64,000 nucleotides of DNA from Ornithinimicrobium avium (GTDB lineage Bacteria > Actinomycetota > Actinomycetes > Actinomycetales > Dermatophilaceae), in NCBI RefSeq assembly GCF_003351765.1, contig NZ_CP031229.1:2376916-2440915 (forward strand). Direction: 5' to 3'. Within the stretch, counting starts at the first letter, position 1. The number at the start of each line of letters is the position of its first letter. A model generated the notes under the pieces. It made no database searches. It was not told the origin of the DNA and was given only the letters and a program-made list of their open reading frames with translations. Positions 6,113-40,410 of the stretch are shown here, in pieces. Both the position numbers and the translations under genes were made by a program.

Positions 6113-6445
6113 TGGTTCGAGGTGATGGAGGCCCGGGATAGGGCCGCCGTATACCTCGATCCCGGTCCCCCTTCCCGGTTCGAGGTAATGGAGGCCCGGG
6201 ATAGGGCCGCCGTATACCTCGATCCCGGGGATGGACGCTGCGGTGCAGGGTCGTCCCCTGATGGGGAAGTGGGGACATCGCGCCTCGACGAGGACCCGGC
6301 GCGCCCAGCGTTGGACCGGCTCTCCCCACCCGGTTCGAGGTAATCGACCACCACATCACGGCTGCCGCATACCTCGACTCCGGCGCCGCTGGCCCGGTTC
6401 GAGGTATGTCACGGCAGCGGCCCGGCGGTCGGTTACCTCGACCCG
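6113..6445. repeat. Four REP-like palindromic units (~52-55 bp each: CCGGTTCGAGGTA-N27-30-TACCTCGAnCCGG). Units 1 and 2 are near-identical tandem copies.
   Basis: Units read directly at about 6113-6166, 6176-6230, 6329-6383 and 6394-6445. Inverted-repeat arms GGTTCGAGGTA / TACCTCGA(A/T/C)CC. The last unit overlaps the stop of the DUF559 gene. Confidence 0.8.
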
Positions 6446-7359
6446 AAGCGGTGCTGGCAGATCCAGTAGCCGGCGCACACCTGGTCCAGGAACTCCTCCC
6501 GGAAGAGCCGCCACCCGACGAGGTCGATCCGGAGCACGGTGTCGTCGGTCAAGGTCACCGCGTTGGCGCGCAGGTTGTCGTTGGCGACGGACAGTCCCTG
6601 GTGATGCCCGGAGCCGTCGATCTCGACCACCAGTCCGTTGGGCCACCTGGCGTCGAGGTAGACCTTGTTGCCGACCCCGCGCCGGACGACCTGCCGCTCC
6701 GGCTCGGGCAGCCCGCGCATCCGGCAGCCCTCGGCGAAGTCAAGCTCACCCAACGACTGTGCCCCCAGGGCGATGTCGCGGATCACGAGTTCGATGAAGC
6801 GCCGTCTCGTCCGGCCCCTGACCGTCTTCCGGGCCGCGAGCAGCTGTTGGCCGGTGACGAGCCGCTGCTGCACCGGCATGCAGAGGATCAGCGCGGCCTG
6901 CCGGTCGGAGACCGCCCAGTGGGCACCGTGGATGGCGGCGACGGCCGGGCGGACCCGTGGGATCCCGTTCGTGAGGAGGTCCGCCTCCGGACGGCGGATG
7001 AGCTTGTGGATCCGCACCCCGGGGACGTCCTCGATGTCGTGCCGATGGAGCACGCTGACGTGGGTCGCATGCTCGGTGAAGCCGGTCATGCCCGCCTCGG
7101 TCAGCGCCGTCACCCCGTCCAGCGCAGCGATCCCCGCCCCGACCTCCCATATGGCCCGCCAGCGATCGGCGCGCGCGCCAAGCTCGCCCGTGTGCATGGC
7201 GATGGTCTGCCGCCCGTGCACGCGCCATCGCTGCGCAGCCTCCTCGCGGCGGACCATGCGGTTGTCGACCCCGATCCTGCGCAGTCGTTCTCGCGACAGT
7301 GCCCCGCCGAAGTCGTCCGCGGTCGCCCGCGCCAGCTCCCTGCGCTCCCTGGTACCCAT
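6433..7359 (-). CDS. DUF559 (Vsr-like endonuclease fold) protein with AbiEi-like N-terminal domain
   Basis: 308-aa ORF. C-terminus LVVEIDGSGHH...DNLRANAVTLTDDTVLRIDLVGWRL fits the DUF559 pattern. Bracketed by the REP-like units. Confidence 0.6.
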   Translation of the reverse strand: MGTRERRELARATADDFGGALSRERLRRIGVDNRMVRREEAAQRWRVHGRQTIAMHTGELGARADRWRAIWEVGAGIAALDGVTALTEAGMTGFTEHATHVSVLHRHDIEDVPGVRIHKLIRRPEADLLTNGIPRVRPAVAAIHGAHWAVSDRQAALILCMPVQQRLVTGQQLLAARKTVRGRTRRRFIELVIRDIALGAQSLGELDFAEGCRMRGLPEPERQVVRRGVGNKVYLDARWPNGLVVEIDGSGHHQGLSVANDNLRANAVTLTDDTVLRIDLVGWRLFREEFLDQVCAGYWICQHRFGSR

Positions 7360-7585: not shown

Positions 7586-8716
7586 TCAGGAGGAGGGGAA
7601 GACGCGCACCGGTCCCACGACGTTGATGCCCACGACGTCTCCCACCTCGGGCAGCCGCAGCCCGACGGTGCGCGCGCGCAGGCCGTTGACCGGCACGCCG
7701 CTGACCAGCTCGAGGTCGGCGACGCTGTCGTGGCCGAAGAAGGTCACCGAGCGCACCCGGGCGTCCACCGATCCCGTCCCCGGCGGGACGATCTGCAGCT
7801 GCTCGGGGCGCAGCAGCGCCTCGACCGCGCCGCGGGTGACGAACCCGGCCGTCTGCAGGTTGCCCAGCGCGCAGCGGAACTGGTCCCGGCTGGCCAGGCC
7901 GTGCACGTAGATGGCGTCGCCGAGGAAGGTGGCCACGTGCGCGTCGACCGGCTCGCCGTAGACGGCCCGCGGTGCGGCGACCTGGCGGAACCGGCCCTGG
8001 CGCAGGATCGCCACCTCGTCGGCGAAGGACAGCGCCTCCCCCTGGTCGTGGGTGACCAGGACGGCGGTCGCGCCGGCCGCCCGCAGCGCCCGGGCGGTGG
8101 CCTCGCGGGTGGCGGCGCGCAGCGCGGTGTCCAGGGAGGAGAACGGCTCGTCGAGCAGCACGAGGTCCGGGTGCGGGGCCAGCGCCCTGGCCAGCGCCAC
8201 CCGCTGCTGCTGGCCGCCGGAGAGCTGGTCTGGCCGGCGTCCGGCCACCTCGGGCGGCAGCTCGACCAGCTCGAGCAGCTCGGCGATCCGCTCGCGGTGG
8301 TGGCGGTCACGGCGTCCGATCGCGGGCCGCGGCAGGCCGAAGGCGATGTTGCCGGCGACGGTCAGGTGCGGGAACAGCCCGCCGTCCTGGCGCACGTAGC
8401 CGATGCCGCGCCGCTCGGGCGGCACGAGGGTGTGCTCGTCGGCGACCACGCGGCCACCGATCGACACCGACCCCGTGGTCGGCCGCAGGAACCCGGAGAT
8501 CACCCGCAGCAGCGTCGTCTTGCCGGAGCCGGAGCCGCCCAGCACGGCCGTGGTGGTGCCGGCCCGCACGGTGAGGTCGACGTCGTGCAGCACCTGGTTG
8601 CCCCCGTAGCCGGCCCGGACGCCGCGCACGCGCACCTCGCTCACCGGTGCCACCTCCGTCTGCGCGCTCGTCGTCCGCTCGGTCCGCCCTTCGGGCAGGG
8701 TCGCCACCATTGTCAT
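7586..8716 (-). CDS. ABC transporter ATP-binding protein, FbpC/PotA-type with C-terminal TOBE domain
   Basis: 376 codons from ATG 8716 (ATGA overlap with the permease stop). Walker A GGSGSGKTT, signature LSGGQQQRVALARAL, Walker B LVLLDEP. Confidence 0.85.
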   Translation of the reverse strand: MTMVATLPEGRTERTTSAQTEVAPVSEVRVRGVRAGYGGNQVLHDVDLTVRAGTTTAVLGGSGSGKTTLLRVISGFLRPTTGSVSIGGRVVADEHTLVPPERRGIGYVRQDGGLFPHLTVAGNIAFGLPRPAIGRRDRHHRERIAELLELVELPPEVAGRRPDQLSGGQQQRVALARALAPHPDLVLLDEPFSSLDTALRAATREATARALRAAGATAVLVTHDQGEALSFADEVAILRQGRFRQVAAPRAVYGEPVDAHVATFLGDAIYVHGLASRDQFRCALGNLQTAGFVTRGAVEALLRPEQLQIVPPGTGSVDARVRSVTFFGHDSVADLELVSGVPVNGLRARTVGLRLPEVGDVVGINVVGPVRVFPSS

Positions 8717-10245
8717 CCTTCCTTCGTGATCTGCCGGCGCAGCACCACGGTCAGCGGCACGGACAGGGCGATCATCATCGCGGCGTAGGGCGCCGCAGCC
8801 GTGTAGTCCAGCTCGTCCGCCGCGCCCCAGAACGCCAGGGCCAGCGTCTCGACCCCGGTCGGCGCGAGCAGCAGGGTCGCGGTCAGCTCGGTCGTGATCG
8901 CCAGCGCGACGAGCACGAAGCCACCGAGCACGGAGGGCGCGGCCAGCGGCAGCACGACCCGGGTGAGCACCGAGACGCCGCGCGCGCCCAGGGCCCGCGC
9001 CGCCTCCGACAGCTCCGGGGGCGCCGCAGCCAGTCCCGCGCGCAGCGACACCATCGCGCGCGGGATGAACAGGATGGCGTAGGCGAGGACGAGCAGCAGC
9101 GCGGTCTGGTAGATCGCGGGGGCGACGTCGACGGCCACGCCGATCAGGGCGAGGGCGATGACCACGCCCGGCAGCGCGCTGGCCAGGAAGGTCGAGCGCT
9201 CCAGCAGGATCGCCAGCGGCCCGTGGCGGCGGGCGAGCAGCAGCGCGCCGGGCAGGGCGAGCGCGACCGCGAGCACCCCGCCGGCCAGGGCCAGGGCCAG
9301 GGTGGAGAGGGTGACCGGCCCCAGGTCGCTCAGGTCGACACCACGCTGGCTCTGGCCGACGAGCAGCCAGCGCAGCACCATGACGACCGGGACGGCCACC
9401 GCCAGGGCGGCGACCGCGCCGAGGAAGACCAGTGCCGGGGCGCGCCACCCTCGCAGCGGCACGGGGTCGGCGCGTCGCCCCGCCCCGGAGCCGACCCGCG
9501 CCACCCTGCGCCGGCCGCGCGCGGCCACCTCGAGCGCGAGCACGACCAGGCACAGCCCGACCAGGACGGTCGCCAGCAGCGAGCCGGGGGTGTCGCTGAA
9601 CCCCACGGCATACTGCTGCAGGATCGCGGTCGTGAAGGTCTGGTAGCGCATCATCTCCAGCACGCCGTACTCGGCGAGCAGGTGCAGCGCGACCAGCAGC
9701 GCTCCCCCGCTGATCGCCGGTCGCAGCCGGGGCAGGACGGTGCGCAGCGCGGCGCGCAGCGGCCCCAGGCCCAGCGAGCGGGCGGCCTCCTCCTCTCCGC
9801 CGTCCAGCGCGCGCAGCAGCGAGGCGACGGGCAGGAAGACGAAGGGGAAGTAGGCCAGCGTCGTCACCAGCACCGCGCCGCCCAGGCCCACGAGCTGGGG
9901 CTGCCAGGAGATCCAGGCATAGCTGCTGACGAACGCCGGGACGGCCAGCGGCGCGAGCATGAGCGTGCGCCACAGTCCTGCCAGCGGCAGGTCGGTGCGC
10001 TCGACCAGCCAGGCCGCGACGATGCCGAGGACCATGGCCGCGGGCACGGTGAGCAGCAGCAGCCAGCCGGTGTGGGCCAGCAGCTCACCGATCCGCGGCC
10101 GCACCAGGTAGTCGACCGCCGCGGACCAGCCGTCGGCGCCTCCGCGGACGACGACCACGACGACGGGCAGGAGCGTGAGCGCCGCGACGAGCGTCGCGAG
10201 CGGCCCGAGCACCCGTGCGGGTGCATGGTCAGAGGATGCCGGCAT
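8713..10245 (-). CDS. Fe3+-type ABC transporter permease (fused double transmembrane domain, FbpB-like)
   Basis: 510-aa polytopic protein with two EAA-like loops (EAARSLG / SEAARALG). Confidence 0.85.
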   Translation of the reverse strand: MPASSDHAPARVLGPLATLVAALTLLPVVVVVVRGGADGWSAAVDYLVRPRIGELLAHTGWLLLLTVPAAMVLGIVAAWLVERTDLPLAGLWRTLMLAPLAVPAFVSSYAWISWQPQLVGLGGAVLVTTLAYFPFVFLPVASLLRALDGGEEEAARSLGLGPLRAALRTVLPRLRPAISGGALLVALHLLAEYGVLEMMRYQTFTTAILQQYAVGFSDTPGSLLATVLVGLCLVVLALEVAARGRRRVARVGSGAGRRADPVPLRGWRAPALVFLGAVAALAVAVPVVMVLRWLLVGQSQRGVDLSDLGPVTLSTLALALAGGVLAVALALPGALLLARRHGPLAILLERSTFLASALPGVVIALALIGVAVDVAPAIYQTALLLVLAYAILFIPRAMVSLRAGLAAAPPELSEAARALGARGVSVLTRVVLPLAAPSVLGGFVLVALAITTELTATLLLAPTGVETLALAFWGAADELDYTAAAPYAAMMIALSVPLTVVLRRQITKEG

Positions 10246-11257
10246 CCGTCATCATCATGACGACCTTGTCCGAGTCCAGCGCCGAGGGGTCCACGAGCGG
10301 CGCGTCCAGGCTGTCCAGCGGGGGCAGGGCGGGGTCGGCGGGCACCCCCCGGGCGACGGGGTACTCCATCGACCCGCTGCTGACCAGGACCTCCTGGCCC
10401 TCGGGGCTGGTCAGGTAGGCGAGGAACTGCTGGGCCTCGTCGGCCTTGTCGGTGGTGGCGAGCACCCCGCCCGCGGACAGCGAGACGAAGGCACCCGGGT
10501 CCTGGTCGCCGAAGTAGTGGAGCTCGGTATTGCCCGAGCCCTCCTTGGTGCCGGCCTGGTCGCGGTACCAGTAGTAGTGGTACATGATCCCGACCGGGAC
10601 CTCGCCGGCGTTGACGGCCTTCATCGTGGCGATGTTGTTCTGGTAGATCTCGGCGCCGTCCTTGAGCCCCTCGAGCCAGGCGGCGGTCTCCTCCTCGCCG
10701 CGGTCGACCAGCATGCCGGCGACGATCGCCTGGAAGTCGGCGCCGCCGGGGGCGCAGCCCCACCTCCCGGCCCAGGCCGCGTCCTGCAGGTCCATCATCG
10801 AGGCGGGCAGCTCGGCCGGCGTGATCATCGAGGTGTTGTAGACGAGCACGGTGGAGCGCGCGGCGATGCCGGTCCACATGCCGCTGGAGGGCGCCCGGCC
10901 CTCGCCGACCTGCTCCAGGGTGGTCTCCTCGACCGGCGCGAGCATGCCGGCGCGCTCGACGACCGTCATCGCCGGGGAGTTCTCGGTGAGGAAGACGTCG
11001 GCGGGCGAGGCGTCGCCCTCCTGGACGATCATGTGCCCCATCGAGGAGTCCGTGCCGGAGCGCACCTGGGTCTTGATCCCGGTCGCGTCGGTGAACGCCC
11101 TGGCCCATGCCTCGGTGACGTTCTGGTGCTGGCTGGAGTAGATCTGCAGCGCCTCGGGGTCGGGGACGTACTTCTCGTCCCCGCTGCACGCGCTGAGAAC
11201 GACGGGGCTGGCCAGGAGCGCGGCGATCAGGGTGCGGCGGCTCAGGGTGGGGGTCAC
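10229..11257 (-). CDS. Fe3+ ABC transporter substrate-binding lipoprotein (SfuA/FbpA/AfuA family)
   Basis: GTG 11257 overlaps the upstream stop (GTGA). Lipobox LSAC. LQIYSSQHQNVTEAWARAFTDATGIKTQVRSG...SPADVFLTEN resembles SfuA/FbpA. Confidence 0.8.
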   Translation of the reverse strand: MTPTLSRRTLIAALLASPVVLSACSGDEKYVPDPEALQIYSSQHQNVTEAWARAFTDATGIKTQVRSGTDSSMGHMIVQEGDASPADVFLTENSPAMTVVERAGMLAPVEETTLEQVGEGRAPSSGMWTGIAARSTVLVYNTSMITPAELPASMMDLQDAAWAGRWGCAPGGADFQAIVAGMLVDRGEEETAAWLEGLKDGAEIYQNNIATMKAVNAGEVPVGIMYHYYWYRDQAGTKEGSGNTELHYFGDQDPGAFVSLSAGGVLATTDKADEAQQFLAYLTSPEGQEVLVSSGSMEYPVARGVPADPALPPLDSLDAPLVDPSALDSDKVVMMMTDAGIL

Positions 11258-13932
11258 GCGGCGGTCCTCTCGGGGGTGGGGTCGCAGGCAGGGGTACGGG
11301 GTCGCACCAGCCGGTCCGCCAGCCGCCGCAGCGGGGCGTCCGTCCAGCGCCAGACCACGACCCCGACGGCCAGGGCGGCCAGCGTCTTCAGGGGCGGGGT
11401 GGGCACGAGGTCGAGCACCTGGAACTGGACCAGGTAGATGATCAGGCTGGCGGCGGCGAGCGTCGCGACCGCCGGCACCAGCCGGGAGGGCACCCTGATC
11501 GAGGGCAGCAGGGCGAGGGCCAGCACGCCGGCGAGGATGGTCGCGTTGCGGACCGGGTCGTCGGGGAAGTACCACGCGATGCCGAGCACCATCGCGCCGA
11601 GCGTCCACCGGCGGCGGGCCACGGTCCTCGCGGTGGCCAGGGCCAGGCCGACCGCGAAGAGCCAGAAGACGGTCGGCATCATGCCGCGCAGCACGCCGTC
11701 GGCGAAGGTGAGGATGAGGAAGCGGGGCACGAGGCCGGCCAGCACGAGGCCGAAGGCGACCTGCCAGGGGTCGACCCGCCAGCGGCGCGACACCCCGGGC
11801 AGGGAGAGCACCACGGTGGTGACCAGCACGCAGGCGAGCAGGGAGTCGATGAACCACAGCTCGTTGTGCTTGCCGTAGGAGATGTCGTCGACGAGCCAGT
11901 TGGCCATGAGGACGTTGTCCCAGCCGTAGCGCCCGTAGCTCAGCCCGACCAGCGCGACGAGCATCGTGGGGACCGCGATGCCGACCAGGAGCCGGGTGCT
12001 GCCGCGCCAGCGGCCGCGGGCGGTCGCCGCGGACAGGCCGAAGAGGGCGGCGTTGTAGCCAGCCACCACGAGGAGCGTGTGGGCACCGCCGAGCAGCCGG
12101 AAGAGTCCGGCGTGGGTGCCGCAGATCATCACCACGGCGAGCGCGCGGAGCACGACGGAGGTCTCCAGGCGGACCGGCCCGCCGAGCCAGCGCGCGAGGC
12201 GTCCGGTGGCGGGCTGCTCGTCCTGGTCGGTCCGACCGCCGGCGACCGCGGCGGTGACCAGGTCCTGGAGCGGTCGGTGGTGCCAGTCGGGCGGCAGGGT
12301 GCCGAGGAGCGCGGTGAGCCGGGTGGAGGCCTGCACGTGGGAGAGCGAGTCGCCGCCCTGGGCGACGAAGGAGCGGGCGAGGTCGATCTCGTCCCGGCCC
12401 AGGACCGTGGACAGCGCCGCCCCGACGCGGACCTGCAGGGGCGGGGCGTCCATCTGCTGGCGGGCGTCCACGCACTCCTCGGGGTCGCTGGCCCGCACGA
12501 GGACGTCGCACCCGGCGCGGTCGACCTTGCCGTTGGACAGCCGGGCGAGCGGCAGGACGGCCACCCGGACGTGGCCCACGCCCAGGCCGCAGGCGTGCGC
12601 GGCGGTGCGGCGCGCCATACCGGAGAGGTCGGTGGTGGAGGTGCCCCCGACCGGCTCGACGGCGACGCGCAGCCCGTCGTCGTCGCCGGTGACGCAGACG
12701 ACGAGGCCCTCGCGCTCGAGCGCGGTCTCGACCCGGGCGAGGTCGATGCGCAGGCCGAGGACCTTGACGAAGCCGGAGCGGCGCCCCACGATCCGCAGCA
12801 CGCCGTCCTCGTCCAGCCGGCCCAGGTCGCCGGTGCGCAGCTCGGTGAGCATCGGGCCGGGCGCGAGCTCGTCGGGGTGCTGGGCGTAGCCCATCATCAC
12901 GCCGGGGCCCCGCACGACGACCTCGCCGGTGCCGGCGTGCGGGTCGGCCTCGGGGACGTCGCGGTCGAGGACGACCTGGGTGCCCGGGACGGGGCGGCCG
13001 ACGGCGTCGGGCGCGGTCAGGGCGGCGGCCGGGTCGTGGACGGCGATCCGGGCGGTGGCCTCGGTCTGGCCGTACATGACGGCCAGGCCCCAGCCGTGCT
13101 CGGCGCCGAGGCGGGCGGTGCGCTCGACCCGCTCGGGGGCCAGCCGGCCGCCGGCCTGGGTGATCAGGCGCAGGCTCGGGTGCGGGCGCTGCAGGACGCC
13201 GGTGGTCTCCATCAGCTCGACCATGTGCGGCACCACGGCGATGTCGGTGACGCGGTGGTCGTCGACGACCGACCAGAAGGCCTCCTCGACGACGGAGGCG
13301 GTGGTGAGCGCGACGGAGGCACCGACCGTGAGGTGGGAGTGCAGGACCGAGAGCCCGAAGCAGTAGTGCAGCGGCAGGCTCGTCACCCCGCGGTCCGAGG
13401 CGGTGAGACTCAGCGCCTGGGCGATGGCCGCGGCGTTGGAGAGGACGTTCTCGTGGGAGAGCCGGACCAGCTTGGGCGAGCCGGTGCTGCCGGAGGTGGA
13501 CAGCAGGAGCGCGAGGTCGGGGTGGAGCAGGTGCCGGGGCGAGGCGTCCGCCGAGGTCTCGAACGTCCCGTGGGCCGTCATCGCCAGGTCGACCGGCCAG
13601 GCGTCGGTGACGGCGGCGGAGGCCGTCGGGTCGGCGCTGGTGACGAGCGCCACGTGCCCGGCCTCCAGCACGGCGAGGTAGCCCACCACCGCCTCGACGG
13701 TCGACGGCATCGGGACGTGGACGAGCAGCCTCTCCCCCGCGGCCCGGGCGTCCAGCTCCTCGGCGAGGGCGTCGACCCGCCGGCGCAGCGTGCCGTGGTC
13801 CAAGACCGTCCCGTCGGCCCCGACCAGGGCGGGGGCGGCCGGTTCGACCTGCCCGGCCACCGGCAGCGGCGAGCGCCGCACGTCCGGTCGGAGGACCGGG
13901 CGCGGTGCGAGACCGAGCATGGTGGGGGACAC
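11254..13932 (-). CDS. NRPS-like tri-domain protein: adenylation domain, peptidyl-carrier domain, and C-terminal polytopic membrane domain (acyltransferase-3/OafA-like)
   Basis: 892 aa. A-domain cores LSTSGSTGSPK, LRTGDLGR, GRRSGFVKVLGLRIDL, LPLARLSNGKVDR. Carrier motif FVAQGGDSLSHVQ. From about residue 590 there are 8-10 hydrophobic helices, opening with LRALAVVMICGTHAG (R-x11-H spacing as in AT3 TM1). Confidence 0.75.
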   Translation of the reverse strand: MSPTMLGLAPRPVLRPDVRRSPLPVAGQVEPAAPALVGADGTVLDHGTLRRRVDALAEELDARAAGERLLVHVPMPSTVEAVVGYLAVLEAGHVALVTSADPTASAAVTDAWPVDLAMTAHGTFETSADASPRHLLHPDLALLLSTSGSTGSPKLVRLSHENVLSNAAAIAQALSLTASDRGVTSLPLHYCFGLSVLHSHLTVGASVALTTASVVEEAFWSVVDDHRVTDIAVVPHMVELMETTGVLQRPHPSLRLITQAGGRLAPERVERTARLGAEHGWGLAVMYGQTEATARIAVHDPAAALTAPDAVGRPVPGTQVVLDRDVPEADPHAGTGEVVVRGPGVMMGYAQHPDELAPGPMLTELRTGDLGRLDEDGVLRIVGRRSGFVKVLGLRIDLARVETALEREGLVVCVTGDDDGLRVAVEPVGGTSTTDLSGMARRTAAHACGLGVGHVRVAVLPLARLSNGKVDRAGCDVLVRASDPEECVDARQQMDAPPLQVRVGAALSTVLGRDEIDLARSFVAQGGDSLSHVQASTRLTALLGTLPPDWHHRPLQDLVTAAVAGGRTDQDEQPATGRLARWLGGPVRLETSVVLRALAVVMICGTHAGLFRLLGGAHTLLVVAGYNAALFGLSAATARGRWRGSTRLLVGIAVPTMLVALVGLSYGRYGWDNVLMANWLVDDISYGKHNELWFIDSLLACVLVTTVVLSLPGVSRRWRVDPWQVAFGLVLAGLVPRFLILTFADGVLRGMMPTVFWLFAVGLALATARTVARRRWTLGAMVLGIAWYFPDDPVRNATILAGVLALALLPSIRVPSRLVPAVATLAAASLIIYLVQFQVLDLVPTPPLKTLAALAVGVVVWRWTDAPLRRLADRLVRPRTPACDPTPERTAA

Positions 13933-13940
13933 GACTGCTT

Positions 13941-13950
13941 AGGCTAGCCT
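13941..13950. promoter_or_regulatory. Perfect 10-bp palindrome AGGCTAGCCT in the 50-bp divergent promoter region between the A-T-membrane gene and the PPTase gene. Candidate operator.
   Basis: Read directly in the only AT-richer stretch (ttaggctagcctcaccaaatatcgtgag) between the divergent starts at 13932 and 13982. Confidence 0.35.
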
Positions 13951-13981
13951 CACCAAATATCGTGAGCCAAACGCGAGGTAT

Positions 13982-14554
13982 ATGAGGAGGGTGGTGTCGG
14001 CTGTGGACGTGCACCTGTGGTGGGCCGACCTCACCTGCGCCGACGCCGCCATGGAGGCGGAGCTGCCCGCCCCGGAGCGCGCGCGGCTGGAGAGGCTCAC
14101 CGGCGCCGAGCGGGCCCGCCGCGCCGTCGGCGCTGCCCTGCTGCAGCACGCCGTGCAGGCGCACCGGGCGCGGTCCGGGCCGGTCGTGGTCGACCGCACC
14201 TGCGAGGGGTGCGGGGCCCAGCACGGACGGCCCGTGGTGGAGGGCGGCCCCCACGTCTCCGTCGCCCACGCAGGCGTGCTGGTGGTCGTCGCGACCTGCC
14301 AGGACTCACCCGTGGGCATCGACGTGGAGCGGGTCTCGCGGTTCGAGGGCGCGGCCGACGCGCGGCAGGACGCCGGCAGCGGCGACCTCACGGCTGAGGT
14401 CCTCGCCGCGCAGGCGTGGGTGGGCGACGAGGCACGGCTCAAGGCCGGCACGGCCGGTGCGGTGCTCCCGGTGGACGCGCCGCTGCGCGGCTACGCGGCC
14501 GCGCTCTGCGTCGCGGGCGAGGAGTCCGAGGTCCGGCTGGTGGAGCACCGCTGA
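13982..14554 (+). CDS. 4'-phosphopantetheinyl transferase, Sfp-type
   Basis: 190-aa ORF. VHLWW...GIDVE...EARLKA motifs. Divergent from the carrier-domain gene. Confidence 0.8.
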   Translation: MRRVVSAVDVHLWWADLTCADAAMEAELPAPERARLERLTGAERARRAVGAALLQHAVQAHRARSGPVVVDRTCEGCGAQHGRPVVEGGPHVSVAHAGVLVVVATCQDSPVGIDVERVSRFEGAADARQDAGSGDLTAEVLAAQAWVGDEARLKAGTAGAVLPVDAPLRGYAAALCVAGEESEVRLVEHR

Positions 14555-14728: not shown

Positions 14729-16813
14729 TCAGGCCCGCGCAGGCTCCTCCTCCGGGTGCACCGTGTCCACCAGGAGCGCCGTCGACAGCTCGGACGCGGC
14801 CTGCCGTACCTGGGCGAGGTCCACGGCGGCGTGCCGCTCGGCGACGGTCGGCTCGACGGCGGTCAGCACCTCCTGCCGGGTCCGCTCCGCCGCGCGGACC
14901 GCGAGCTCCTGGCGCAGCGCGTCGCTGAGCAGACCGCCCTCGACACCGGCGCGCCGACCCAGCTCCACGGCATACCTCTCCGCAGCGGCGACCTCGTGCT
15001 CGTCGTCGCTGGTGAGCATCAGGGAGGCGTGCTGGAGGATCCGGCGGCCCTTCTCCACGTCGCCGTCGCCGAGCTCGGCGACCGCGCGGGCGAGCAGCGG
15101 ACGGTCCGGCCGCCCGGCGCTGCGGGCGAGCATCGCCAGCTGGATGCCCAGGACCCGCTCACGGGTGCGGGCCCCCAGGTCGCCGTGGCGCAGACCCGGC
15201 ACGTAGTCCTTGTCCGGGGCGCTCTGGGCCATGGTGTCGAGGTACTCCTGCTGCGCCTCGCCGGCCGTGTGCACGGTCTCGCGCAGCGGGATCGCCCGGA
15301 TCGCCAGGGTGGCCACGAAGACCACGAGCATGATCGGCAGGCCGAGCATGAAGGTCGCGTGCAGCTGGTCGGCCAGGCCGGCCCGGATCGCCTCCAGCAC
15401 CTGCGGCGGCATGCCGGCCGTCGCGGCCGGGTCGAGGGCGGCGCCGGCGTCGAGGTTGTCCAGGCCGCCACCGGCCTTCTCGAGGAGGTCCGGGGGCAGG
15501 TGCCCGGCGATGGCGCCGGCCAGCCCGTTGGTCATCACGCTGCCGAAGACCGCCACGCCCACGGTGTTGCCGACGTTGCGGAAGAACTGCAGCGTGGCGG
15601 TGCCCACGCCGAGGTCGGCGCGGGACACGGCGTTCTGGACGACGAGCGTGTACTGCTGCATCGCCATGCCCAGGCCGGTGCCCATGACCGCGATCGCCGC
15701 GGTGAGCTCCCACTCCGAGGAGTCCACGCCGAGGCGGGTCAGCATCCACAGGCCGACGGTCAGCACCACGGTGCCCAGCAGCATGAACTCCTTGTAGCGG
15801 CCGGTCTTGGTGATCAGGACGCCGGTGACGATGCCGAAGACGATGAGGCCCAGCATCATCGGCATGAGGATCAGCCCGGACGCGGTGGCGTCGACGCCGA
15901 GCACGCCCTGGGCGAAGACCGGCACGTAGATGATCGCCGCGAACATCACCATCGCCAGCGCGAACGCGGCGATGTTGGAGGCGGTGAAGATGCTGTTGCG
16001 GAAGAGCCGCAGCGGCAGGAGCGGGTTCTCGGCGTGCAGCTCGGCCCAGGCGAAGACGGCCAGCAGCACGCCGCCGACGACGAGCAGCCCGATGATGACG
16101 GCCGATCCCCAGGGGTAGGTCGTGCCGCCCCAGGAGGTCGCCAGCAGGATCGCGACCAGCGCCGGGACGAGCGTGACGATGCCGAGCACGTCGATCCGGC
16201 CGCGGTGCGGCGTGTGCTCCAGGTGCAGGAAGCGGGCGATGACGAAGACGGCGAAGATCCCGACCGGCAGCGCGGCGAAGAACAGCCAGCGCCAGCCCCA
16301 GTGGTCGGTGATCCAGCCGCCGGCGATCGGGCCAGCGACCGAGGTGACGCCGAAGACAGCGCCCATGAGGCCCTGGTACTTCCCGCGCTGCCGCGCCGGG
16401 ATGATGTCGCCGATGATCGTCTGCGACAGCGGCATCAGCGTGCCCATGCCCAGTCCCTGCACGGCGCGGCCGGCGACCAGAGTCCAGAAGTTGGGGGCCA
16501 GCCCGGAGATGATCGAGCCGATCATGAACACGACCAGGCCGGCGAGGTAGAACTCGCGCCGGCCGAACATGTCGGACAGCTTTCCCACCACGGGCACGAC
16601 GATCGCCGAGACCAGCATCGCCGCGGTCGCGACCCAGCTGTAGTGGGCCATCCCACCCAGCTCGGCGACGATGCGCGGCATCGCGGGCCCGACGATCGTC
16701 TGGCTGATGGAGGCGACGAACATGCCCAGCATCAGGCCGACGAAGACGCGACGGTGCTCGGGGGTCATCCGGTATGGGGTGGCGCCGGTGGGCGCCGTGG
16801 TGGTCGTGCTCAC
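14729..16813 (-). CDS. MFS transporter, DHA2 (EmrB/QacA, 14-TM) family with a long cytoplasmic C-terminal extension
   Basis: 694-aa ORF with MFS motifs (GKLSDMFGRR, 14 hydrophobic segments). GTG start overlaps the MarR stop (GTGA). Confidence 0.8.
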   Translation of the reverse strand: MSTTTTAPTGATPYRMTPEHRRVFVGLMLGMFVASISQTIVGPAMPRIVAELGGMAHYSWVATAAMLVSAIVVPVVGKLSDMFGRREFYLAGLVVFMIGSIISGLAPNFWTLVAGRAVQGLGMGTLMPLSQTIIGDIIPARQRGKYQGLMGAVFGVTSVAGPIAGGWITDHWGWRWLFFAALPVGIFAVFVIARFLHLEHTPHRGRIDVLGIVTLVPALVAILLATSWGGTTYPWGSAVIIGLLVVGGVLLAVFAWAELHAENPLLPLRLFRNSIFTASNIAAFALAMVMFAAIIYVPVFAQGVLGVDATASGLILMPMMLGLIVFGIVTGVLITKTGRYKEFMLLGTVVLTVGLWMLTRLGVDSSEWELTAAIAVMGTGLGMAMQQYTLVVQNAVSRADLGVGTATLQFFRNVGNTVGVAVFGSVMTNGLAGAIAGHLPPDLLEKAGGGLDNLDAGAALDPAATAGMPPQVLEAIRAGLADQLHATFMLGLPIMLVVFVATLAIRAIPLRETVHTAGEAQQEYLDTMAQSAPDKDYVPGLRHGDLGARTRERVLGIQLAMLARSAGRPDRPLLARAVAELGDGDVEKGRRILQHASLMLTSDDEHEVAAAERYAVELGRRAGVEGGLLSDALRQELAVRAAERTRQEVLTAVEPTVAERHAAVDLAQVRQAASELSTALLVDTVHPEEEPARA

Positions 16814-17244
16814 GGGGCGGGGGTCCTTCGGGACTCGAGGGTGTCGCTGAGCTTGCCGAGCAGCCGGGCGAGCTGGTCCTTGTCGGACTCCTCCCAGCCG
16901 GCCAGGGCGTCGGTGACGAGGGCGACCCGGCGGTGGCGTTCGACGCGCAGAGCCTCGGCACCGACGACCGTCAGCCGCAGCCGGTGGGCGCGGCGGTCGT
17001 CAGGGTCGGTCTCCCGCTCGACCAGGCCGCGCTCGGTCAACGAGGCGACGCGGCGGCTCATCGTCGAGGGGTCCAGGCCCTCGGCGTGGGCGAGGTCGCT
17101 GGGGCGGCAGGGACCCTCGCCCTCGACCGCGTTCGCCAGCCGGACGAGCGTGAGGTAGTCGGACCTCGGAAGCTCGGCATCCCGCTCGTTGATCGCGCGG
17201 CCCATGGCGGCGAAGGCGCGCGCGAGCTGCTCAGTCAGTTGCAT
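16810..17244 (-). CDS. MarR-family transcriptional regulator
   Basis: 144 aa from ATG 17244 (MQLTEQLARAF...). Winged-HTH region LTERGLVERETDPDDRRAHRLRLT. Upstream of, and coupled to, the MFS gene. Confidence 0.75.
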   Translation of the reverse strand: MQLTEQLARAFAAMGRAINERDAELPRSDYLTLVRLANAVEGEGPCRPSDLAHAEGLDPSTMSRRVASLTERGLVERETDPDDRRAHRLRLTVVGAEALRVERHRRVALVTDALAGWEESDKDQLARLLGKLSDTLESRRTPAP

Positions 17245-17403
17245 GATGCATGCAATCTTACCAGCCGTGAGCGGTGCCGGTGACCACGTGCAGGCCCTGG
17301 GACGGGACGGCGCGCCGCCAGGGGTGGACCGGTGTCGGCGCCGGATGAGACCGTGGGGGCTGGCGCCGGACCGCGCCGGACCGCGCCGGGCGGAGGGAGA
17401 GCG

Positions 17404-18222
17404 ATGACCACGATCGGGGGTGCGGGACTGATCCGGCGGCGGACCCTGCTGCGGGCCGGCGCGCTCGCCGTGGCGGGCGCCGCGGGCCTTCCGCTGTCCG
17501 CGTGCTCGCCGCGCACCGACGACCGCCTCGCCCCGGTGCTGGAGGGTCGGCTGAGCTCGGCGCACCTGCCCGGGACCGAGCCGCGGTGGCGGCTGGCGCT
17601 GCCGGAGGGAGCGGTGGCCACGGTGGTGGCGCTGCACGGCCACGGCGGCAGCTTGCGGACCTGGTTCGAGCCACCGCTCGGGCCCGCCCTGGCACAGCGC
17701 CTGGGCCTGGCGGTGGCCGCGGTCGACGGCGGCGACAGCTACTGGCACGCCCGCGCCGACGGCACCGACGCCGGCACGATGGTGCTGGAGGACCTGCTGC
17801 CGGTGCTGGAGCGGGAGGGGGCCCCGGTGGACCGGGTCGGCTTCACCGGCTTCTCGATGGGCGGCTACGGCGCGCTGCTGCTGGCCACCCGGCTGCCGCC
17901 CGAGCGGGTCCTGGGCGTGGCCGCGATGAGCTCCGCGCTCTTTCTCTCGCCCGCGGAGACGTCGGCGGGCGCGTTCGACGACGCCGCCGACTTCGCCGAG
18001 CACGACGTGCGCGCCAGGGTGGACGCGCTGCGACGGCTCCCGGTGTGGATGGCCTGCGGCGCCGACGACGAGTTCGTCGAGGCCAACCATGCGCTCGCCG
18101 AGCAGCTCCCCGAGGCGGTCACGGTGTTCGACGAGGGGCGGCACGACCGCGCCTACCTCGAGGGGCACTGGCCTGCGGGTATGGAGTTCCTCGCCGGGCA
18201 GGTTGGTCCGGGCCGTGCCTGA
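17404..18222 (+). CDS. Secreted putative esterase (alpha/beta hydrolase, esterase-D/PF00756-like) with Tat signal
   Basis: RRRTLLRAGALAVAGAAG twin-arginine signal. GFSMGG nucleophile elbow. The longest ORF starts at 17332; the ATG at 17404 is preferred. Confidence 0.7.
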   Translation: MTTIGGAGLIRRRTLLRAGALAVAGAAGLPLSACSPRTDDRLAPVLEGRLSSAHLPGTEPRWRLALPEGAVATVVALHGHGGSLRTWFEPPLGPALAQRLGLAVAAVDGGDSYWHARADGTDAGTMVLEDLLPVLEREGAPVDRVGFTGFSMGGYGALLLATRLPPERVLGVAAMSSALFLSPAETSAGAFDDAADFAEHDVRARVDALRRLPVWMACGADDEFVEANHALAEQLPEAVTVFDEGRHDRAYLEGHWPAGMEFLAGQVGPGRA

Positions 18223-18325
18223 CCCCCTCACCGGAGTGGCCCGTGCACGCCATACCGTCTCCTCGCGTGCCTGACCCACTCACGGGAGTGGCTCGTGCAC
18301 GCCATACCCGTCCGTCGCGGACGCT
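18220..18325. repeat. Tandem ~52-bp duplication, about 85% identical, beginning at the esterase stop codon
   Basis: Unit 1 TGACCCCCTCACCGGAGTGGCCCGTGCACGCCATACCGTC... and unit 2 TGACCCACTCACGGGAGTGGCTCGTGCACGCCATACCCGTC.... Each unit holds a short inverted repeat CACTCACGGGAGTG. Confidence 0.75.
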
Positions 18326-18330
18326 CGGCG

Positions 18331-18957
18331 TCAGGCCGACCGGCCCGCCACCGACGCGATGCCGAGCCAGGTGTGCCGGTTGCCCGCCCAGCACCAGCCG
18401 AGCTTGGGCGCGTCCTTGCGCTCCTTGCCGTCCCGGCCCGTGCCGTTGCTGATCCACAGGGCGGGGACGCGCGCGTCGAGCCGGCCGCGGCGGGAGCCCG
18501 GTCTGCGCGAACCGGTCGTCATGAAGCAGTGGTTGCGCTCGAGCACCTCCGGCACCTGCAGGGCCCAGGCCACCCCCTCGGCCGCGGTCATCAGGTCGCG
18601 GCCGCGCGCCCGGACCTGCGGGTCGACCTCGTCGGGGCTCTGGTCGGCGTACTCGTCCCCGCGCTGGGGGTCGAGCACCGCATACAGGTCGGCGTCCGGG
18701 ACCTCGACCCCCGGAGCAGGGACGAACTGCGCCAGGTCGGTCAGGTCCTCCACGACGAACCCGGGCCGCTCGCGCAGACGCAGCAGCGCGACGAGGTCGA
18801 CCACCGGGGTGTGCCGCGGGTGCACCACGAGCAGGTCGCCCGCCAGGTCCTCGGGCAGGGCCGGCAGGTCGACGCCGAGGGCGAGCAGACGGGCGTGCTG
18901 GTCGGCGAGCGCGGGCAGCGTCACGGGGCCTCCTGGGCGGGTGGTGGACCCACGCAA
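18331..18957 (-). CDS. Hypothetical protein
   Basis: 208-aa ORF with plausible codon bias. No motif recognised (NHCFM...GWCWAGNRHTWLG). Confidence 0.45.
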   Translation of the reverse strand: MRGSTTRPGGPVTLPALADQHARLLALGVDLPALPEDLAGDLLVVHPRHTPVVDLVALLRLRERPGFVVEDLTDLAQFVPAPGVEVPDADLYAVLDPQRGDEYADQSPDEVDPQVRARGRDLMTAAEGVAWALQVPEVLERNHCFMTTGSRRPGSRRGRLDARVPALWISNGTGRDGKERKDAPKLGWCWAGNRHTWLGIASVAGRSA

Positions 18958-19014
18958 ACGCCCGCGGGCGCAGGGGCATTCCCCTTGACATGCGGCCGTG
19001 CGACCGCAGGCGGG

Positions 19015-19710
19015 TCAGCCCGGCCGGTCGCCCAGGCGCACCTCGCGCTCGTCCCAGTCGATCTGCGCGACCTGCTCCATGGGGACGTATGCCGTGTCCC
19101 GGTGGATCCGGCGCACCAGCACGGCCAGGGCGGCCGGCCCCTGGTCCTCGTCGCGTTCGTAGCCCATGAGCGAGCCCGGCCTGCCCACCCGGCCGACGAT
19201 CAGACCCACGGCGCGCACCCGTCCCGAGGCGAGCTCCCCGGCCGGCGCCATCCGCACGTCGAGGACCTGCCCGAGGCGCTCACCGTCGGCCGAGGTCACG
19301 CGCACCGCGAGCAGGTCGCCCAGGCGGTGGCGCACGTCGTCCTCATCCTCCTCCGGGCCCGACGCCAGCTGCACGAGGCCGTCGCGCTCGCGGTCGAGGC
19401 GCACCTCCTGGTCGAGCTCGGCGACCCTCTCGATGCCGATCCGCCCGGGCGTGGTCCGGTGGGCCCTGGTCACGCCCAGGAGGCGCCACCACTCCAGCAA
19501 CCACGGGCCGAACCGGGGCCCCAGCCGCGGGAGCCAGGCGGGGACGCCGACGAGGATGCCGGTGACCCGCAGCCCGCCCCCGTCCTGCGTGAGCTCCACG
19601 TCGTCGACCTTGCCGGCCAGCCGGCCCTCGGAGTCGACGAGCTGGCGGTCGAGCAGCTGCAGCGCCGCGTCCAGGAACCCCTCCGGCCGGGCCAGGTCGT
19701 CCTTCCTCAT
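19015..19710 (-). CDS. Hypothetical protein (two internal repeats; possibly PRC-barrel-like)
   Basis: 231-aa ORF. The repeated G-x-V-x-D-V motif is only weakly suggestive. Confidence 0.45.
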   Translation of the reverse strand: MRKDDLARPEGFLDAALQLLDRQLVDSEGRLAGKVDDVELTQDGGGLRVTGILVGVPAWLPRLGPRFGPWLLEWWRLLGVTRAHRTTPGRIGIERVAELDQEVRLDRERDGLVQLASGPEEDEDDVRHRLGDLLAVRVTSADGERLGQVLDVRMAPAGELASGRVRAVGLIVGRVGRPGSLMGYERDEDQGPAALAVLVRRIHRDTAYVPMEQVAQIDWDEREVRLGDRPG

Positions 19711-19717
19711 TCCTGCC

Positions 19718-20947
19718 TCACTTCCCCATCCCGGTGACGATCATCAGCGGGATCGCCGCGAGGGAGACCACCAGGATGATCACCAGGTAGATCATGCCCA
19801 TCACGTTGGCGAGCCGGCCGTTGACGTGGTCGCCGAGGTAGTCGCGGTCGTTGGCGACGACGAGGATCGGCAGGTAGGTCAGGGGCAGCGCGAGGGCGGA
19901 GAAGACCACCGAGGCCTCGGTGACCATGACGGGGTCGACCGTCGTCATGAGCACCCCCGTCGCGGCGATGATCGACACCCCGACGACGACGTGGAAGGTG
20001 GTGGCCTCACCGGCCCGGACGTACTTGCCCCACTGGAAGCCGAAGTACTGCGCGACGCTGTAGCCGATCGACAGGCCGGTCTCGCAGGCCGCGCCGAAGG
20101 TCGCCGCGACGAAGCCGAGGATCACCACGGCCAGCCCGATCTTGCCCAGGGCCACGGCCACCGGCAGCGCGACCTGGCCGAGGGAGTCGACCGTGACGCC
20201 CTCGGGCATGAGGACCACGCCCGCGCTGCCCGCGATCGCCAGGGACAGCAGCCCGCCGAGGGGGAAGCCGACGAGGACGTTGGCGCGCATGACGCCGATG
20301 TCCTTCGGCGTCCACTTCTCCTCCACGCCTCCGGAGGAGAAGAAGAACACCTCGTAGGGGGTCATCGCCGCACCGAAGAGCGCCACCGCGTAGAAGGCGT
20401 AGGTGGTCCAGCTCTCCTGCGAGGGCTTGCGGGCCATCAGGGCGTCCTTGCCGAGCTCGGCCCAGTCGGGTCCCAGCTGCCACAGGGCGACCGCGAACAC
20501 GACGAGGGCCAGGCCGAGCAGTCCCACGACGTTCTCCATCGCGGAGAACTTGGCCCGCCACAGGACCAGCCAGAGCAGGACCGCGATGAACGGCGCGACG
20601 AGCAGGTAGTGCACCGAGCTGAGCAGCTGCAGGGCCAGCGCGACACCGCCGATCTCGGCGACGAGGGTCAGGAAGGTCACCGCCATCGAGGCGACCAGGT
20701 TGAGCAGGCCGACCCGCGGGCCGAGCCGCTCGCGCACCAGGTCGAAGGTGGCCCGCCCGCTGACGGCGGCGATCCGGCCGGACATCTCGGAATAGACACA
20801 GATGCCGATGACGCCGATCACCACGACCCACGCCAGCGACAGGCCGAACCGTGAGCCGACGACCGCGTTGGTGACGAGGTCGCCGATGTCGACGAAACCG
20901 CCGATCGCGGTGAGGATGCCGAGGGCGACGGCGAGGTACTTCTTCAT
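19718..20947 (-). CDS. mntH: NRAMP-family divalent metal (Mn2+/Fe2+) transporter MntH
   Basis: 409 aa from ATG 20947 (MKKYLAVALGILTAIGGFVDIGDLVTNA...). DPGN-equivalent region and 11 TM segments. The longest ORF (531 aa) has an Arg-rich spurious N-terminal extension. Confidence 0.8.
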   Translation of the reverse strand: MKKYLAVALGILTAIGGFVDIGDLVTNAVVGSRFGLSLAWVVVIGVIGICVYSEMSGRIAAVSGRATFDLVRERLGPRVGLLNLVASMAVTFLTLVAEIGGVALALQLLSSVHYLLVAPFIAVLLWLVLWRAKFSAMENVVGLLGLALVVFAVALWQLGPDWAELGKDALMARKPSQESWTTYAFYAVALFGAAMTPYEVFFFSSGGVEEKWTPKDIGVMRANVLVGFPLGGLLSLAIAGSAGVVLMPEGVTVDSLGQVALPVAVALGKIGLAVVILGFVAATFGAACETGLSIGYSVAQYFGFQWGKYVRAGEATTFHVVVGVSIIAATGVLMTTVDPVMVTEASVVFSALALPLTYLPILVVANDRDYLGDHVNGRLANVMGMIYLVIILVVSLAAIPLMIVTGMGK

Positions 20948-21396
20948 CCGCCCGCCCTCCGCAGCGGCTCGGCGGCCTGCTCGAGCTCCTGGCCGACCTT
21001 CTGCAGCCGGACCTGGAGCCCGGCGTAGTCGGCCTGCGCCCCGGTGGCGAACGCGATCCGCGCGTCGACGAGGACGGACTCGGCCTGCCGGAGGAGCTCG
21101 GCCAGCCGACGGAAGTCCTCGGCCCGCCCGGGTGCGGGCTGGCTGCCCAGGTAGCCCCGCGCGGCACCAGCCGCCGAGCTCTCCGCGTCCTGGGCGAGCA
21201 CGAGGCCGGAACGGCCCAGGAGGTGGCCCTTCTGCGCCTCGTCCAGGGCCAGCCGGCTGCTCGCCACGCTGCCGGCGACGTCGTCGAGCACCTGCACCGA
21301 GGACCTGACCCATGCCTGATCGTCCGGGGGCGAGGACGTCCCGCAGCCCGTGAGCAGGAGCACGGCGAGCGCCGCAGCGAGGGGTCGACGATCCAT
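20944..21396 (-). CDS. Lipoprotein of unknown function
   Basis: 150 aa with LLTGC lipobox. ATGA overlap with the mntH start. Confidence 0.55.
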   Translation of the reverse strand: MDRRPLAAALAVLLLTGCGTSSPPDDQAWVRSSVQVLDDVAGSVASSRLALDEAQKGHLLGRSGLVLAQDAESSAAGAARGYLGSQPAPGRAEDFRRLAELLRQAESVLVDARIAFATGAQADYAGLQVRLQKVGQELEQAAEPLRRAGG

Positions 21397-39459: not shown

Positions 39460-40410
39460 TCAGCCGAGCGTAGTCAGCAGTCTGCCCAAGGCCTCCGCGA
39501 TCGCGATCCCGCCAGATGAGCCGAGCGCGGCCACCGCCGCGCCGGACGCGTTCTCCGCGAGTCGCCTGATCACACCCGGGTCGCGAGGGCCGTTCGCCTC
39601 CGCCTCGATTTCGTCCAGACTCTCAACTACCTTCGCACGGGCTGTCGCGTCATACTCCGGGTTGGCATCTAGCAAGGCCCGCACCGCTTGGACGTCGGCC
39701 AGAACTTGCTGCCTCTGGTCGTTGCTGATCGGAGCGACCATTACATTCTGATCGCCGATCTGAACGTTCCCGCCATGGTTCGTGAACGAGCCATGTACTC
39801 CGCTGCGCTGGTCGTACGTCACCGACGATGAACCCGAGAACAGCGAACCGGTCAGCGACACGTCAGGCCTACCAAGGACTACTCGACCCTTCGGTTCCAG
39901 CCTGGTTCGCACGAAGTCCTGCTGGGCGCTGTGGAACCCGTGGATATACCCCTGAGATTCGAGGACTTTCATGCACGTTTCGCGTTCCTGCTCCGTGACT
40001 TCCGGTAGCCCGGGCATGTGCAGGTTCCATGAAGCGACCTCGGTCCACGTGACGTCCTGGCCCTTCTCGGCCATGTGGCGCAGGATCTCACGAGCCGTGT
40101 GGTCGTAGCGGTCCTGACCGGTCGCCTGCGATTCCTGCAGTTCCCTCACAACCGTCCTCCCCATCGCCGTTGGTTGGTGACCGCCACTCATCCGGCCGCT
40201 TGACCGGAGAAGACCGAGGGCCTCAAGGTCTCTCGTGTGCTCCATCACGTCGCGAGTACCGAGCCCCACCGACTTCCCTGCAGATTCGGTAGAAACGTAC
40301 TCGTTAGGTTCGTCTCCCGGGTTGTCGCCCACGGCTTCAGCTACGGCTGCCAGCAACTTGAACTGGTCGGTGCCCCTAAGCCGTGCTTTCAAAGCAGTCT
40401 TATCCATCAT
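39460..40410 (-). CDS. Hypothetical protein, possibly two tandem winged-helix-like domains plus a C-terminal domain
   Basis: Low-GC ORF. Preferred start MMDKTALKARL at 40410 with a GAAGG RBS. The longest ORF extends to 40509. Confidence 0.5.
   Translation of the reverse strand: MMDKTALKARLRGTDQFKLLAAVAEAVGDNPGDEPNEYVSTESAGKSVGLGTRDVMEHTRDLEALGLLRSSGRMSGGHQPTAMGRTVVRELQESQATGQDRYDHTAREILRHMAEKGQDVTWTEVASWNLHMPGLPEVTEQERETCMKVLESQGYIHGFHSAQQDFVRTRLEPKGRVVLGRPDVSLTGSLFSGSSSVTYDQRSGVHGSFTNHGGNVQIGDQNVMVAPISNDQRQQVLADVQAVRALLDANPEYDATARAKVVESLDEIEAEANGPRDPGVIRRLAENASGAAVAALGSSGGIAIAEALGRLLTTLG

Follow-up and report, generated by a model that had tools for sequence, protein, structure and literature searches.

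What might a bacterium gain from a single protein that combines an enzyme for activating carboxylic acids, a carrier for holding them and a membrane domain for passing them on, and why should such a protein be encoded next to an importer for ferric iron? The question is raised by a locus on the chromosome of Ornithinimicrobium avium, within a stretch of 64,000 nucleotides (64 kb, here called the window) that has a high G+C content (~0.72-0.75 around the locus). The gene at its centre (11254..13932, minus strand) encodes a product of 892 aa, for which an initial annotation of this DNA had proposed an adenylation domain, a carrier domain and an acyltransferase-3 (AT3) membrane domain on one chain. 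Pfam domains, matches of the orthologues and the fold predicted by AlphaFold confirm this A-T-AT3 arrangement, with adenylation, carrier (thiolation) and C-terminal AT3-type transmembrane acyltransferase domains. The product is 100% identical to an NCBI entry from Ornithinimicrobium avium (P0001) which is named merely 'AMP-binding protein', and an exact-sequence look-up of the 892-aa protein gave no gene record for that product.

The domain architecture and folds, the conservation of residues, synteny and iron boxes, and the overlaps within the operon were computed directly. We conclude that the locus is real: it represents an uncharacterised form of a known enzyme class, is found widely, and has good support for its connection to iron. 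Among AT3 enzymes, A-T-AT3 is a new architecture. At its core the locus is quite likely to be an iron-regulated, carrier-dependent AT3 acyl-transfer enzyme which is functionally tied to Fe3+ import.

Domains and conserved residues of the A-T-AT3 protein

A scan of one genome per species showed that at least 600 relatives of the 892-aa protein are encoded across the Actinomycetota. The loci studied here are those of the 80 best relatives, and conservation counts use 81 sequences (38-100% identity). Alignment coverage was nearly full-length in all 80, which come from the Micrococcales, Propionibacteriales, Streptomyces, Micromonospora, Nocardioides, Rhodococcus, Nocardia, Mycolicibacterium, Frankiales and Acidimicrobiia. 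With a profile built on the membrane domain, 316 clusters (50% identity) were matched at E<=1e-30 among 1.84 billion representatives, most of them proteins of 810-1000 aa with the membrane domain at the C-terminus. One relative with 84% identity (P0003) shares a 21-kb contig of an 'Acidobacteria bacterium' metagenome-assembled genome with a protein 60% identical to the phosphopantetheinyl transferase described below (P0125); because of this identity to Ornithinimicrobium, the contig is probably mis-binned actinobacterial DNA.

The adenylation domain (about residues 35-480; 12493..13830, minus strand) is supported by Pfam AMP-binding (PF00501, E=1.7e-43), TIGR01733 and an alignment to LgrA. The amino-acid adenylation model TIGR01733 is the best NCBIfam match, its 168.6 bits lying below its cut-off of 317, and the closest solved sequences are modules of non-ribosomal peptide synthetases (NRPS; LgrA, 7.5e-38), with oxalate-CoA ligase, MenE and others coming next. 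In addition to the match to the family hidden Markov model (HMM), the domain has the core motifs of ANL/NRPS-type adenylation enzymes, namely LSTSGSTGSPK (A3), MYGQTEATARI (A5), LRTGDLG (A7), GRRSGFVKVLGLRIDL (A8) and NGKVDR (A10), the last containing Lys469. This lysine, as well as E291, D369 and R384, is kept in 81/81 sequences. Some sources label members of the family 'non-ribosomal peptide synthetase'.

The carrier domain (12253..12450, minus strand) matches the PP-binding model PF00550 when searched as an isolated segment (22.1 bits against a cut-off of 20.8), as do 15/28 orthologues. Its GGDSL motif is encoded at 12343..12357, with the codon of the phosphopantetheine-attachment serine, Ser529, at 12346..12348. 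The carrier function proposed initially depends on this serine, and it is found in all 81 sequences.

The C-terminal domain (about residues 586-880; 11293..12177, minus strand) has ~10 transmembrane (TM) helices. Its first helix reads RALAVVMICGTH, i.e. Arg596-X10-His607 (12112..12147, minus strand), with both residues kept in 81/81 sequences; the initial annotation had counted eleven residues between them, one too many, and the R-X10-H spacing found here is what we take to be the published TM1 motif of AT3 enzymes. An HMM check, which had been left as a condition on the AT3 assignment, found the Acyl_transf_3 model PF01757 weakly in the window copy and better in most orthologues: in an alignment of 28 orthologues it matches 19 at E<1e-3 (best 1.7e-9), and relatives score as high as 46.8 bits (P0199), with 44.6 bits for P0234. 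The AlphaFold model of residues 583-892 is confident (predicted local distance difference test score, pLDDT, 89.4; predicted TM-score, pTM, 0.88) and contains some ten long helices, and the only structural matches to it are HGSNAT, which has been solved with acetyl-CoA, and GWT1, placing the domain in the fold of the transmembrane acyltransferase superfamily. The assignment, weak on the window copy alone, is thus settled by the PF01757 matches of the orthologues and the confident model. An identity as membrane-bound O-acyltransferase (MBOAT), as in DltB, was rejected since neither of the searches made returned an MBOAT, in agreement with the earlier view that this module differs from DltB.

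With an A-T pair fused to it, the membrane domain would be expected to draw on a donor bound to the carrier rather than on acyl-CoA. Among the relatives of the membrane domain, P0204, P0216 and P0234 are T-AT3 proteins with no adenylation domain (such forms have 383-475 aa), and P0232 (1121 aa) is a T-AT3 fusion to a PhoD-like phosphatase. They may represent split systems or truncated gene calls, or they may hint at a phosphodiester-polymer acceptor.

For the acid that is activated, the ten specificity positions were assigned manually, in GrsA numbering, on two HMMER alignments to LgrA: 235=G193, 236=L194, 239=L197, 278=A232, 299=T258, 301=A260, 322=M286, 330=A294, 331=R295 and 517=K469. Asp235 of the A4 motif FDxS binds the alpha-amino group of amino-acid substrates. 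The equivalent position is G193 (FGLS for FDxS), or C191 in the other register, and is Asp in neither; the position is invariant, and an alpha-amino acid is disfavoured as substrate. The initial annotation had suggested activation of an amino or aryl acid, and the alpha-amino part of this is no longer favoured. The pocket presumably lies outside the aryl-acid class (dihydroxybenzoate, salicylate) as well.

The predicted pocket residues G193, A260, M286, A294 and R295 are kept in 81/81 sequences, and it is very likely that the whole family uses one substrate. The invariant Arg295 suggests an anionic or polar group on this substrate; a carboxylic acid of a non-amino and possibly acidic kind is probable. 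Hydroxy-, keto- or di-carboxylic acids would fit the pocket features and are given as a lead only; ligases for dicarboxylic or keto acids are among the better matches outside the NRPS, with oxalate-CoA ligase, MenE and malonyl-CoA synthetase from the PDB and the 2-oxoglutaryl-ACP ligase AmcH from NCBIfam.

The same residues bear on the idea that the protein is a membrane-anchored loading module or polymer synthetase, in which the A-T part would feed a separate siderophore NRPS or build a homopolymer as Pls does. The NRPS names given to some family members would fit, and Pls-type enzymes are A-T-membrane proteins of actinomycetes. However, the membrane part has an AT3 fold with an invariant R-X10-H and no soluble condensation-like domains between its helices, the amino-binding Asp is absent from the pocket, and no NRPS or condensation genes are conserved near the A-T-AT3 gene in the 80 loci. 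We regard this explanation as very improbable.

A phosphopantetheinyl transferase (PPTase), which the carrier would need for its holo form, is encoded divergently from the A-T-AT3 gene (13982..14554, plus strand; 190 aa, called as 183 aa by NCBI, DV701_10895). The open reading frame (ORF) has no Pfam or NCBIfam match of its own, but a profile of 12 orthologues from such loci matches solely Sfp (8e-6) and human AASDHPPT (6e-5) in the PDB. The PPTase N-terminal domain PF22624 is found in 11/12 locus orthologues and 18/38 relatives, and PF01648 in 9/38 relatives, these being the more distant ones; relatives in the databases are named 4'-phosphopantetheinyl transferase. The predicted structure (pLDDT 92.4) has Sfp-type PPTases as all of its top 33 Foldseek matches in the PDB, with TM-scores up to 0.67. 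The sequence contains the motifs SVAHAG, VGIDVE (the GxDxE motif) and W146-x3-E150-x3-K154, and the latter two reproduce the spacing of Sfp. The initial reading of this ORF as a compact Sfp-type PPTase is therefore upheld by the orthologue profile and the Foldseek matches. As a neighbour of the A-T-AT3 gene it is limited to the closest clade (14/81 loci). The PPTase family also carries an invariant insertion DRTCxxCGxxHG (residues 71-84; C74-x2-C77-x3-H81) which is absent from Sfp, and most orthologues have GVDVQ, with Gln in the Mg-binding GxDxE motif; these residues may point to a metal site or to a change in catalysis.

The linked ferric importer and the iron boxes

On the minus strand, the A-T-AT3 gene is followed head to tail by genes for a substrate-binding protein (10229..11257), a permease (8713..10245) and an ATPase (7586..8716), all with overlapping ends. 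The stop codon of the A-T-AT3 gene overlaps the GTG start of the substrate-binding protein gene in the sequence GTGA, as had been noted from the start; the next overlap, with the permease gene, is 17 nt, and the permease and ATPase genes share an ATGA. The initial annotation had also recognised an importer of the Fe3+ type here, with an SfuA/FbpA-like protein, a fused permease and a TOBE-containing ATPase, and Pfam and database matches bear this out. Along its whole length the substrate-binding protein aligns with YfuA of Yersinia (1xvx, E=1.2e-103) and SfuA of Serratia (1xvy, 1.5e-100), and it belongs to Pfam SBP_bac_6; the 510-aa permease contains two BPD_transp_1 stretches, and the 376-aa ATP-binding cassette (ABC) ATPase has PF00005 (1e-35) and a C-terminal TOBE_2 domain (PF08402, 4.9e-6). 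The nearest named importer models of NCBIfam, PhnS2, PhnT2 and PhnU2, score far below their cut-offs.

Residues H44, E92, D174, Y228 and Y229 of the substrate-binding protein align with YfuA residues 14, 62, 144, 198 and 199, which we take to be the iron ligands of YfuA, and are thus candidate metal ligands; with this H/E/D/Y/Y set and the strong sequence match, the protein falls into the ferric-ion-binding YfuA/SfuA class. Its N-terminus has a SRRTLI motif and an LSAC lipobox, as in Gram-positive lipoproteins, and this twin-arginine-like motif together with the lipobox suggests a lipoprotein exported by the twin-arginine translocation (Tat) pathway.

The association with the importer was followed in the 80 loci by tblastn searches with the importer proteins of the window. 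All three subunits adjoin the A-T-AT3 gene in 50/80 loci from many orders, with one further partial case, and they do so in four arrangements: same-strand downstream (19 loci), divergent (21), same-strand upstream (8) and convergent (2). Adjacency that is kept through four arrangements across orders indicates a functional link. Clustering of six-frame ORFs from the 80 loci, which is noisy because of high-GC antisense ORFs, revealed no conserved neighbour besides the ABC genes, and in the loci which lack the importer the neighbours are unrelated housekeeping genes. The linked substrate-binding proteins form two classes, one YfuA-like with H/E/D/Y/Y and one with N/Q/S/Y/Y at these positions, the latter present in 22-23 loci and chiefly in the divergent arrangement. 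The Tyr-Tyr pair is kept in 52/52 linked proteins, and the N/Q/S/Y/Y class may need an external ligand to complete the coordination of Fe3+.

The divergent intergenic region between the A-T-AT3 gene and the PPTase ORF is 49 bp long and contains the perfect 10-bp palindrome AGGCTAGCCT (13941..13950) which had been pointed out in the initial annotation. The palindrome is present, but taken alone it is within chance expectation; its significance comes from being the core of a 19-bp sequence, TTAGGCTAGCCTCACCAAA (13939..13957, strand not assigned), a predicted IdeR/DtxR-type iron box. The 19-bp IdeR/DmdR1 iron-box consensus TTAGGTTAGGCTAACCTAA was taken from the literature (PMC4598388, PMC7174319), and TTAGGCTAGCCTCACCAAA agrees with it (also given as TWAGGTWAGSCTWACCTWA) in 16/19 bases. 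It is the sole site with <=3 mismatches in the 64 kb, and 0/100 shuffled sequences gave any match. Lying between two divergent start codons, this single box could control both transcripts. A scan for sigma-70 promoters found nothing.

At <=4 mismatches the 80 loci contain 98 boxes, compared with 2-4 in shuffled sequence, and 92/98 boxes are inside promoter windows, which run from -300 to +60 relative to the A-T-AT3 start or lie immediately before the linked ABC operon. Boxes are present at these promoters in 69/80 loci, including 24/29 of those with no importer nearby, and from this distribution the A-T-AT3 family appears to belong to a predicted iron-repressor regulon throughout the phylum.

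These counts also speak to the null explanation, namely that the genes form no functional unit and that neighbourhood and palindrome are coincidental. It would account for a 10-bp palindrome that is expected by chance and for the neighbouring genes for a major facilitator superfamily (MFS) transporter, an esterase and an Nramp transporter, which are not syntenic in relatives. Set against it are the synteny in 50/80 loci, the iron boxes in 69/80, the position of 92/98 boxes in promoter windows and the overlap of the genes, and we consider coincidence extremely improbable. The initial annotation had left two functional options, a compact envelope-modification system or a minimal siderophore-like acyl-transfer system, of which the iron-linked one has been strengthened by the conserved synteny and the iron boxes.

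On the PPTase side the locus is adjoined by 14729..21313, where we found a 14-TM-type MFS transporter (14729..16813, minus strand), an esterase-family hydrolase (17332..18222, plus strand) and an Nramp metal transporter (19718..21313, minus strand), with DUF5701 and PRC-barrel genes among the neighbours. On the other side, the ABC operon is separated from a LytS/LytT-like two-component pair by a 308-aa ORF (6433..7359, minus strand) with good codon bias (third-position G+C content 0.91) and no Pfam match. The DUF5701, PRC-barrel and LytS/LytT genes, like the MFS, esterase and Nramp genes, are not syntenic in the relatives. Further away, the G+C content falls to 0.60-0.65 at 40001..46000, compared with 0.70-0.77 in the rest of the window, and this segment may have been acquired horizontally.

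A proposed route for the acyl group and its alternatives

From these data we infer repression by IdeR, the class of acid, the direction and acceptor of transfer and a role in iron capture, and combine them into a scheme in which the five genes are a unit induced by iron starvation from one IdeR/DtxR-controlled divergent promoter. In low iron the repressor would leave the iron box, so that the PPTase and the operon of A-T-AT3, substrate-binding protein, permease and ATPase are expressed. The PPTase would then turn Ser529 of the carrier into its holo form, and the adenylation domain would use ATP to activate a common cytoplasmic carboxylic acid and load it as a thioester on the phosphopantetheine arm; this acid would not be an alpha-amino acid, and most likely a hydroxy-, keto- or di-carboxylic acid held by Arg295. 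The loaded arm, chemically equal to the pantetheine arm of acyl-CoA, could enter the cytoplasmic mouth of the fused AT3 domain, where Arg596 and His607 of TM1 would pass the acyl group to an acceptor at the outer face, be it an envelope glycan, a lipid or a small extracellular molecule. Finally, the carboxylate-rich group may serve as a surface ligand or relay for Fe3+, handing it to the YfuA-like lipoprotein for import by the ABC transporter with no classical siderophore involved.

The first five steps, up to the transfer of the acyl group, follow from established chemistry of the domain families and are supported by architecture and conservation, and the step of iron delivery is suggested by the genomic association. 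The scheme as a whole, with the hand-over of iron, is held tentatively, at slightly below an even chance. That it would represent a widespread way of siderophore-free iron capture in the Actinomycetota, in which an acid passed through the fused AT3 pore becomes a surface-bound or released ferric ligand and feeds a YfuA-like importer, is possible but doubtful.

Several points weigh against this scheme. The C-terminal 316 aa of the window copy reach only 17.2 bits (E=0.0029) with PF01757, for which the curated cut-off is 31, and the window iron box matches the consensus with three mismatches. The two alignments to LgrA differ by two residues at A4, which makes the specificity code uncertain, and models of fatty-acid ligases score equal to those of dicarboxylate ligases. 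Adjacent importer genes are lacking in 29/80 loci, and no acceptor-related or acid-biosynthesis gene is conserved near the A-T-AT3 gene in the 80 loci. Substrate-binding proteins of the YfuA-like class are reported to bind bare Fe3+ with no helper anion, and an added ligand is perhaps unneeded. Lastly, known AT3 enzymes use acyl-CoA, and a review from 2022 argues against carrier-protein donors (PMC9558356).

One alternative is iron-regulated remodelling of the envelope with no chelation involved. Here the protein would esterify peptidoglycan, a lipoglycan or a teichoic-type polymer in a Dlt-like manner, altering surface charge or permeability in iron starvation, and the link to the importer would be one of co-regulation. 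Of the 29 loci without an importer alongside, 24 are still box-positive; this agrees with the proposal, as does the logic shared with DltA/DltC/DltB. Phosphodiester polymers, teichoic acids among them, are substrates of PhoD-like enzymes, and the relative P0232 joins T-AT3 to a PhoD-like phosphatase/phosphodiesterase. Furthermore, AT3 enzymes typically O-acylate envelope glycans (PMC9558356). Yet importer adjacency through four rearrangements exceeds what co-regulation usually preserves, and the pocket Asp expected for a D-alanine-type substrate is absent; overall this explanation seems unlikely.

The N/Q/S/Y/Y class of substrate-binding proteins leads to another possibility, since it leaves coordination sites open for an external ligand. 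In this case the AT3 domain would pass the acid to water or a small soluble acceptor, making the protein a one-protein siderophore synthetase and exporter which secretes a minimal chelator by group translocation, and the secreted organic acid, free or simply derivatised, would solubilise Fe3+ for the importer. The lack of a conserved acceptor-related gene nearby would be expected, and AT3 enzymes are also reported to acylate secreted small molecules (PMC9558356). Nevertheless, ATP and a carrier arm seem a high price for exporting a common acid, given that there are simple exporters; AT3 enzymes are not known to work as hydrolases or exporters, and the substrate-binding protein of the window has the full H/E/D/Y/Y set. 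We therefore judge chelator secretion to be quite unlikely, and retain transfer to an outer-face acceptor, coupled to Fe3+ import, as the preferred reading.

Significance and comparison with known systems

The initial annotation had remarked that this is not a textbook locus, and literature searches returned no paper on an A-T-AT3 fusion or its link to iron, although most subscription journals were outside their coverage and earlier work is possible. Neither the paper on the S. coelicolor DmdR1 regulon nor a survey of Rhodococcus biosynthetic gene clusters mentions such a gene. If siderophore-free capture is true, the protein would be the first carrier-protein-dependent AT3 and would make a cell-bound chelator of a new kind. 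By current understanding, AT3 enzymes need cytoplasmic acyl-CoA, and how the acyl group gets to and across them is a standing mechanistic question, for which a natural A-T-AT3 fusion would show a protein-bound pantetheine arm feeding the pore and provide a self-contained model enzyme. The tie to iron boxes and to an importer of bare Fe3+ also suggests an overlooked step in Gram-positive iron acquisition, bearing on the way in which insoluble Fe3+ is brought to a lipoprotein binding protein when no siderophore is involved.

Several known systems resemble parts of this locus. Pls, the epsilon-poly-L-lysine synthetase of actinomycetes, is likewise a single A-T module fused to a polytopic membrane region; it has six TM helices alternating with three soluble condensation-like domains and activates an amino acid, whereas the window protein has a compact AT3 fold and lacks the amino-binding Asp. 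The window PPTase shares its fold (TM-score 0.62-0.67), GxDxE and W-x3-E-x3-K with Sfp, AASDHPPT and PptT, but is shorter (~190 aa), has the CxxC...H insertion and in many orthologues has Gln for the motif Glu. The importer resembles SfuABC, YfuABC and FbpABC in its YfuA-class binding protein with H/E/D/Y/Y, fused permease and TOBE ATPase, and differs in having a Gram-positive lipoprotein and in its genetic coupling to an acyl-transfer enzyme.

With regard to the membrane enzyme, the DltABCD system of Firmicutes follows the same logic, from an adenylation enzyme via a phosphopantetheinyl carrier and a polytopic membrane acyltransferase to an extracytoplasmic acceptor, although its membrane enzyme is an MBOAT and that of the window an AT3. 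HGSNAT and GWT1 carry acyl groups across the membrane, taking them from cytosolic acyl-CoA and delivering them to an acceptor on the opposite side, but they are eukaryotic users of acyl-CoA with 9-11% identity to the window domain and no fused activation module. The AT3 enzymes OafA, OatA, TmaT and CmmA share the ten-helix membrane domain, the Arg-X10-His of TM1 and an Arg cluster at TM3 with the window protein, and they too presumably take the acyl group from a pantetheine thioester in the cytoplasm and hand it to an acceptor beyond the membrane (PMC9558356). The 2022 review covers only stand-alone AT3, AT3-SGNH and AT3-racemase proteins (PMC9558356). Whereas these known AT3 enzymes, stand-alone or fused to an SGNH or racemase domain, draw acyl-CoA from the cellular pool, the window protein has no SGNH domain, carries its adenylation-carrier donor covalently fused to the membrane domain, and has a gene that is linked with iron boxes and a ferric importer.

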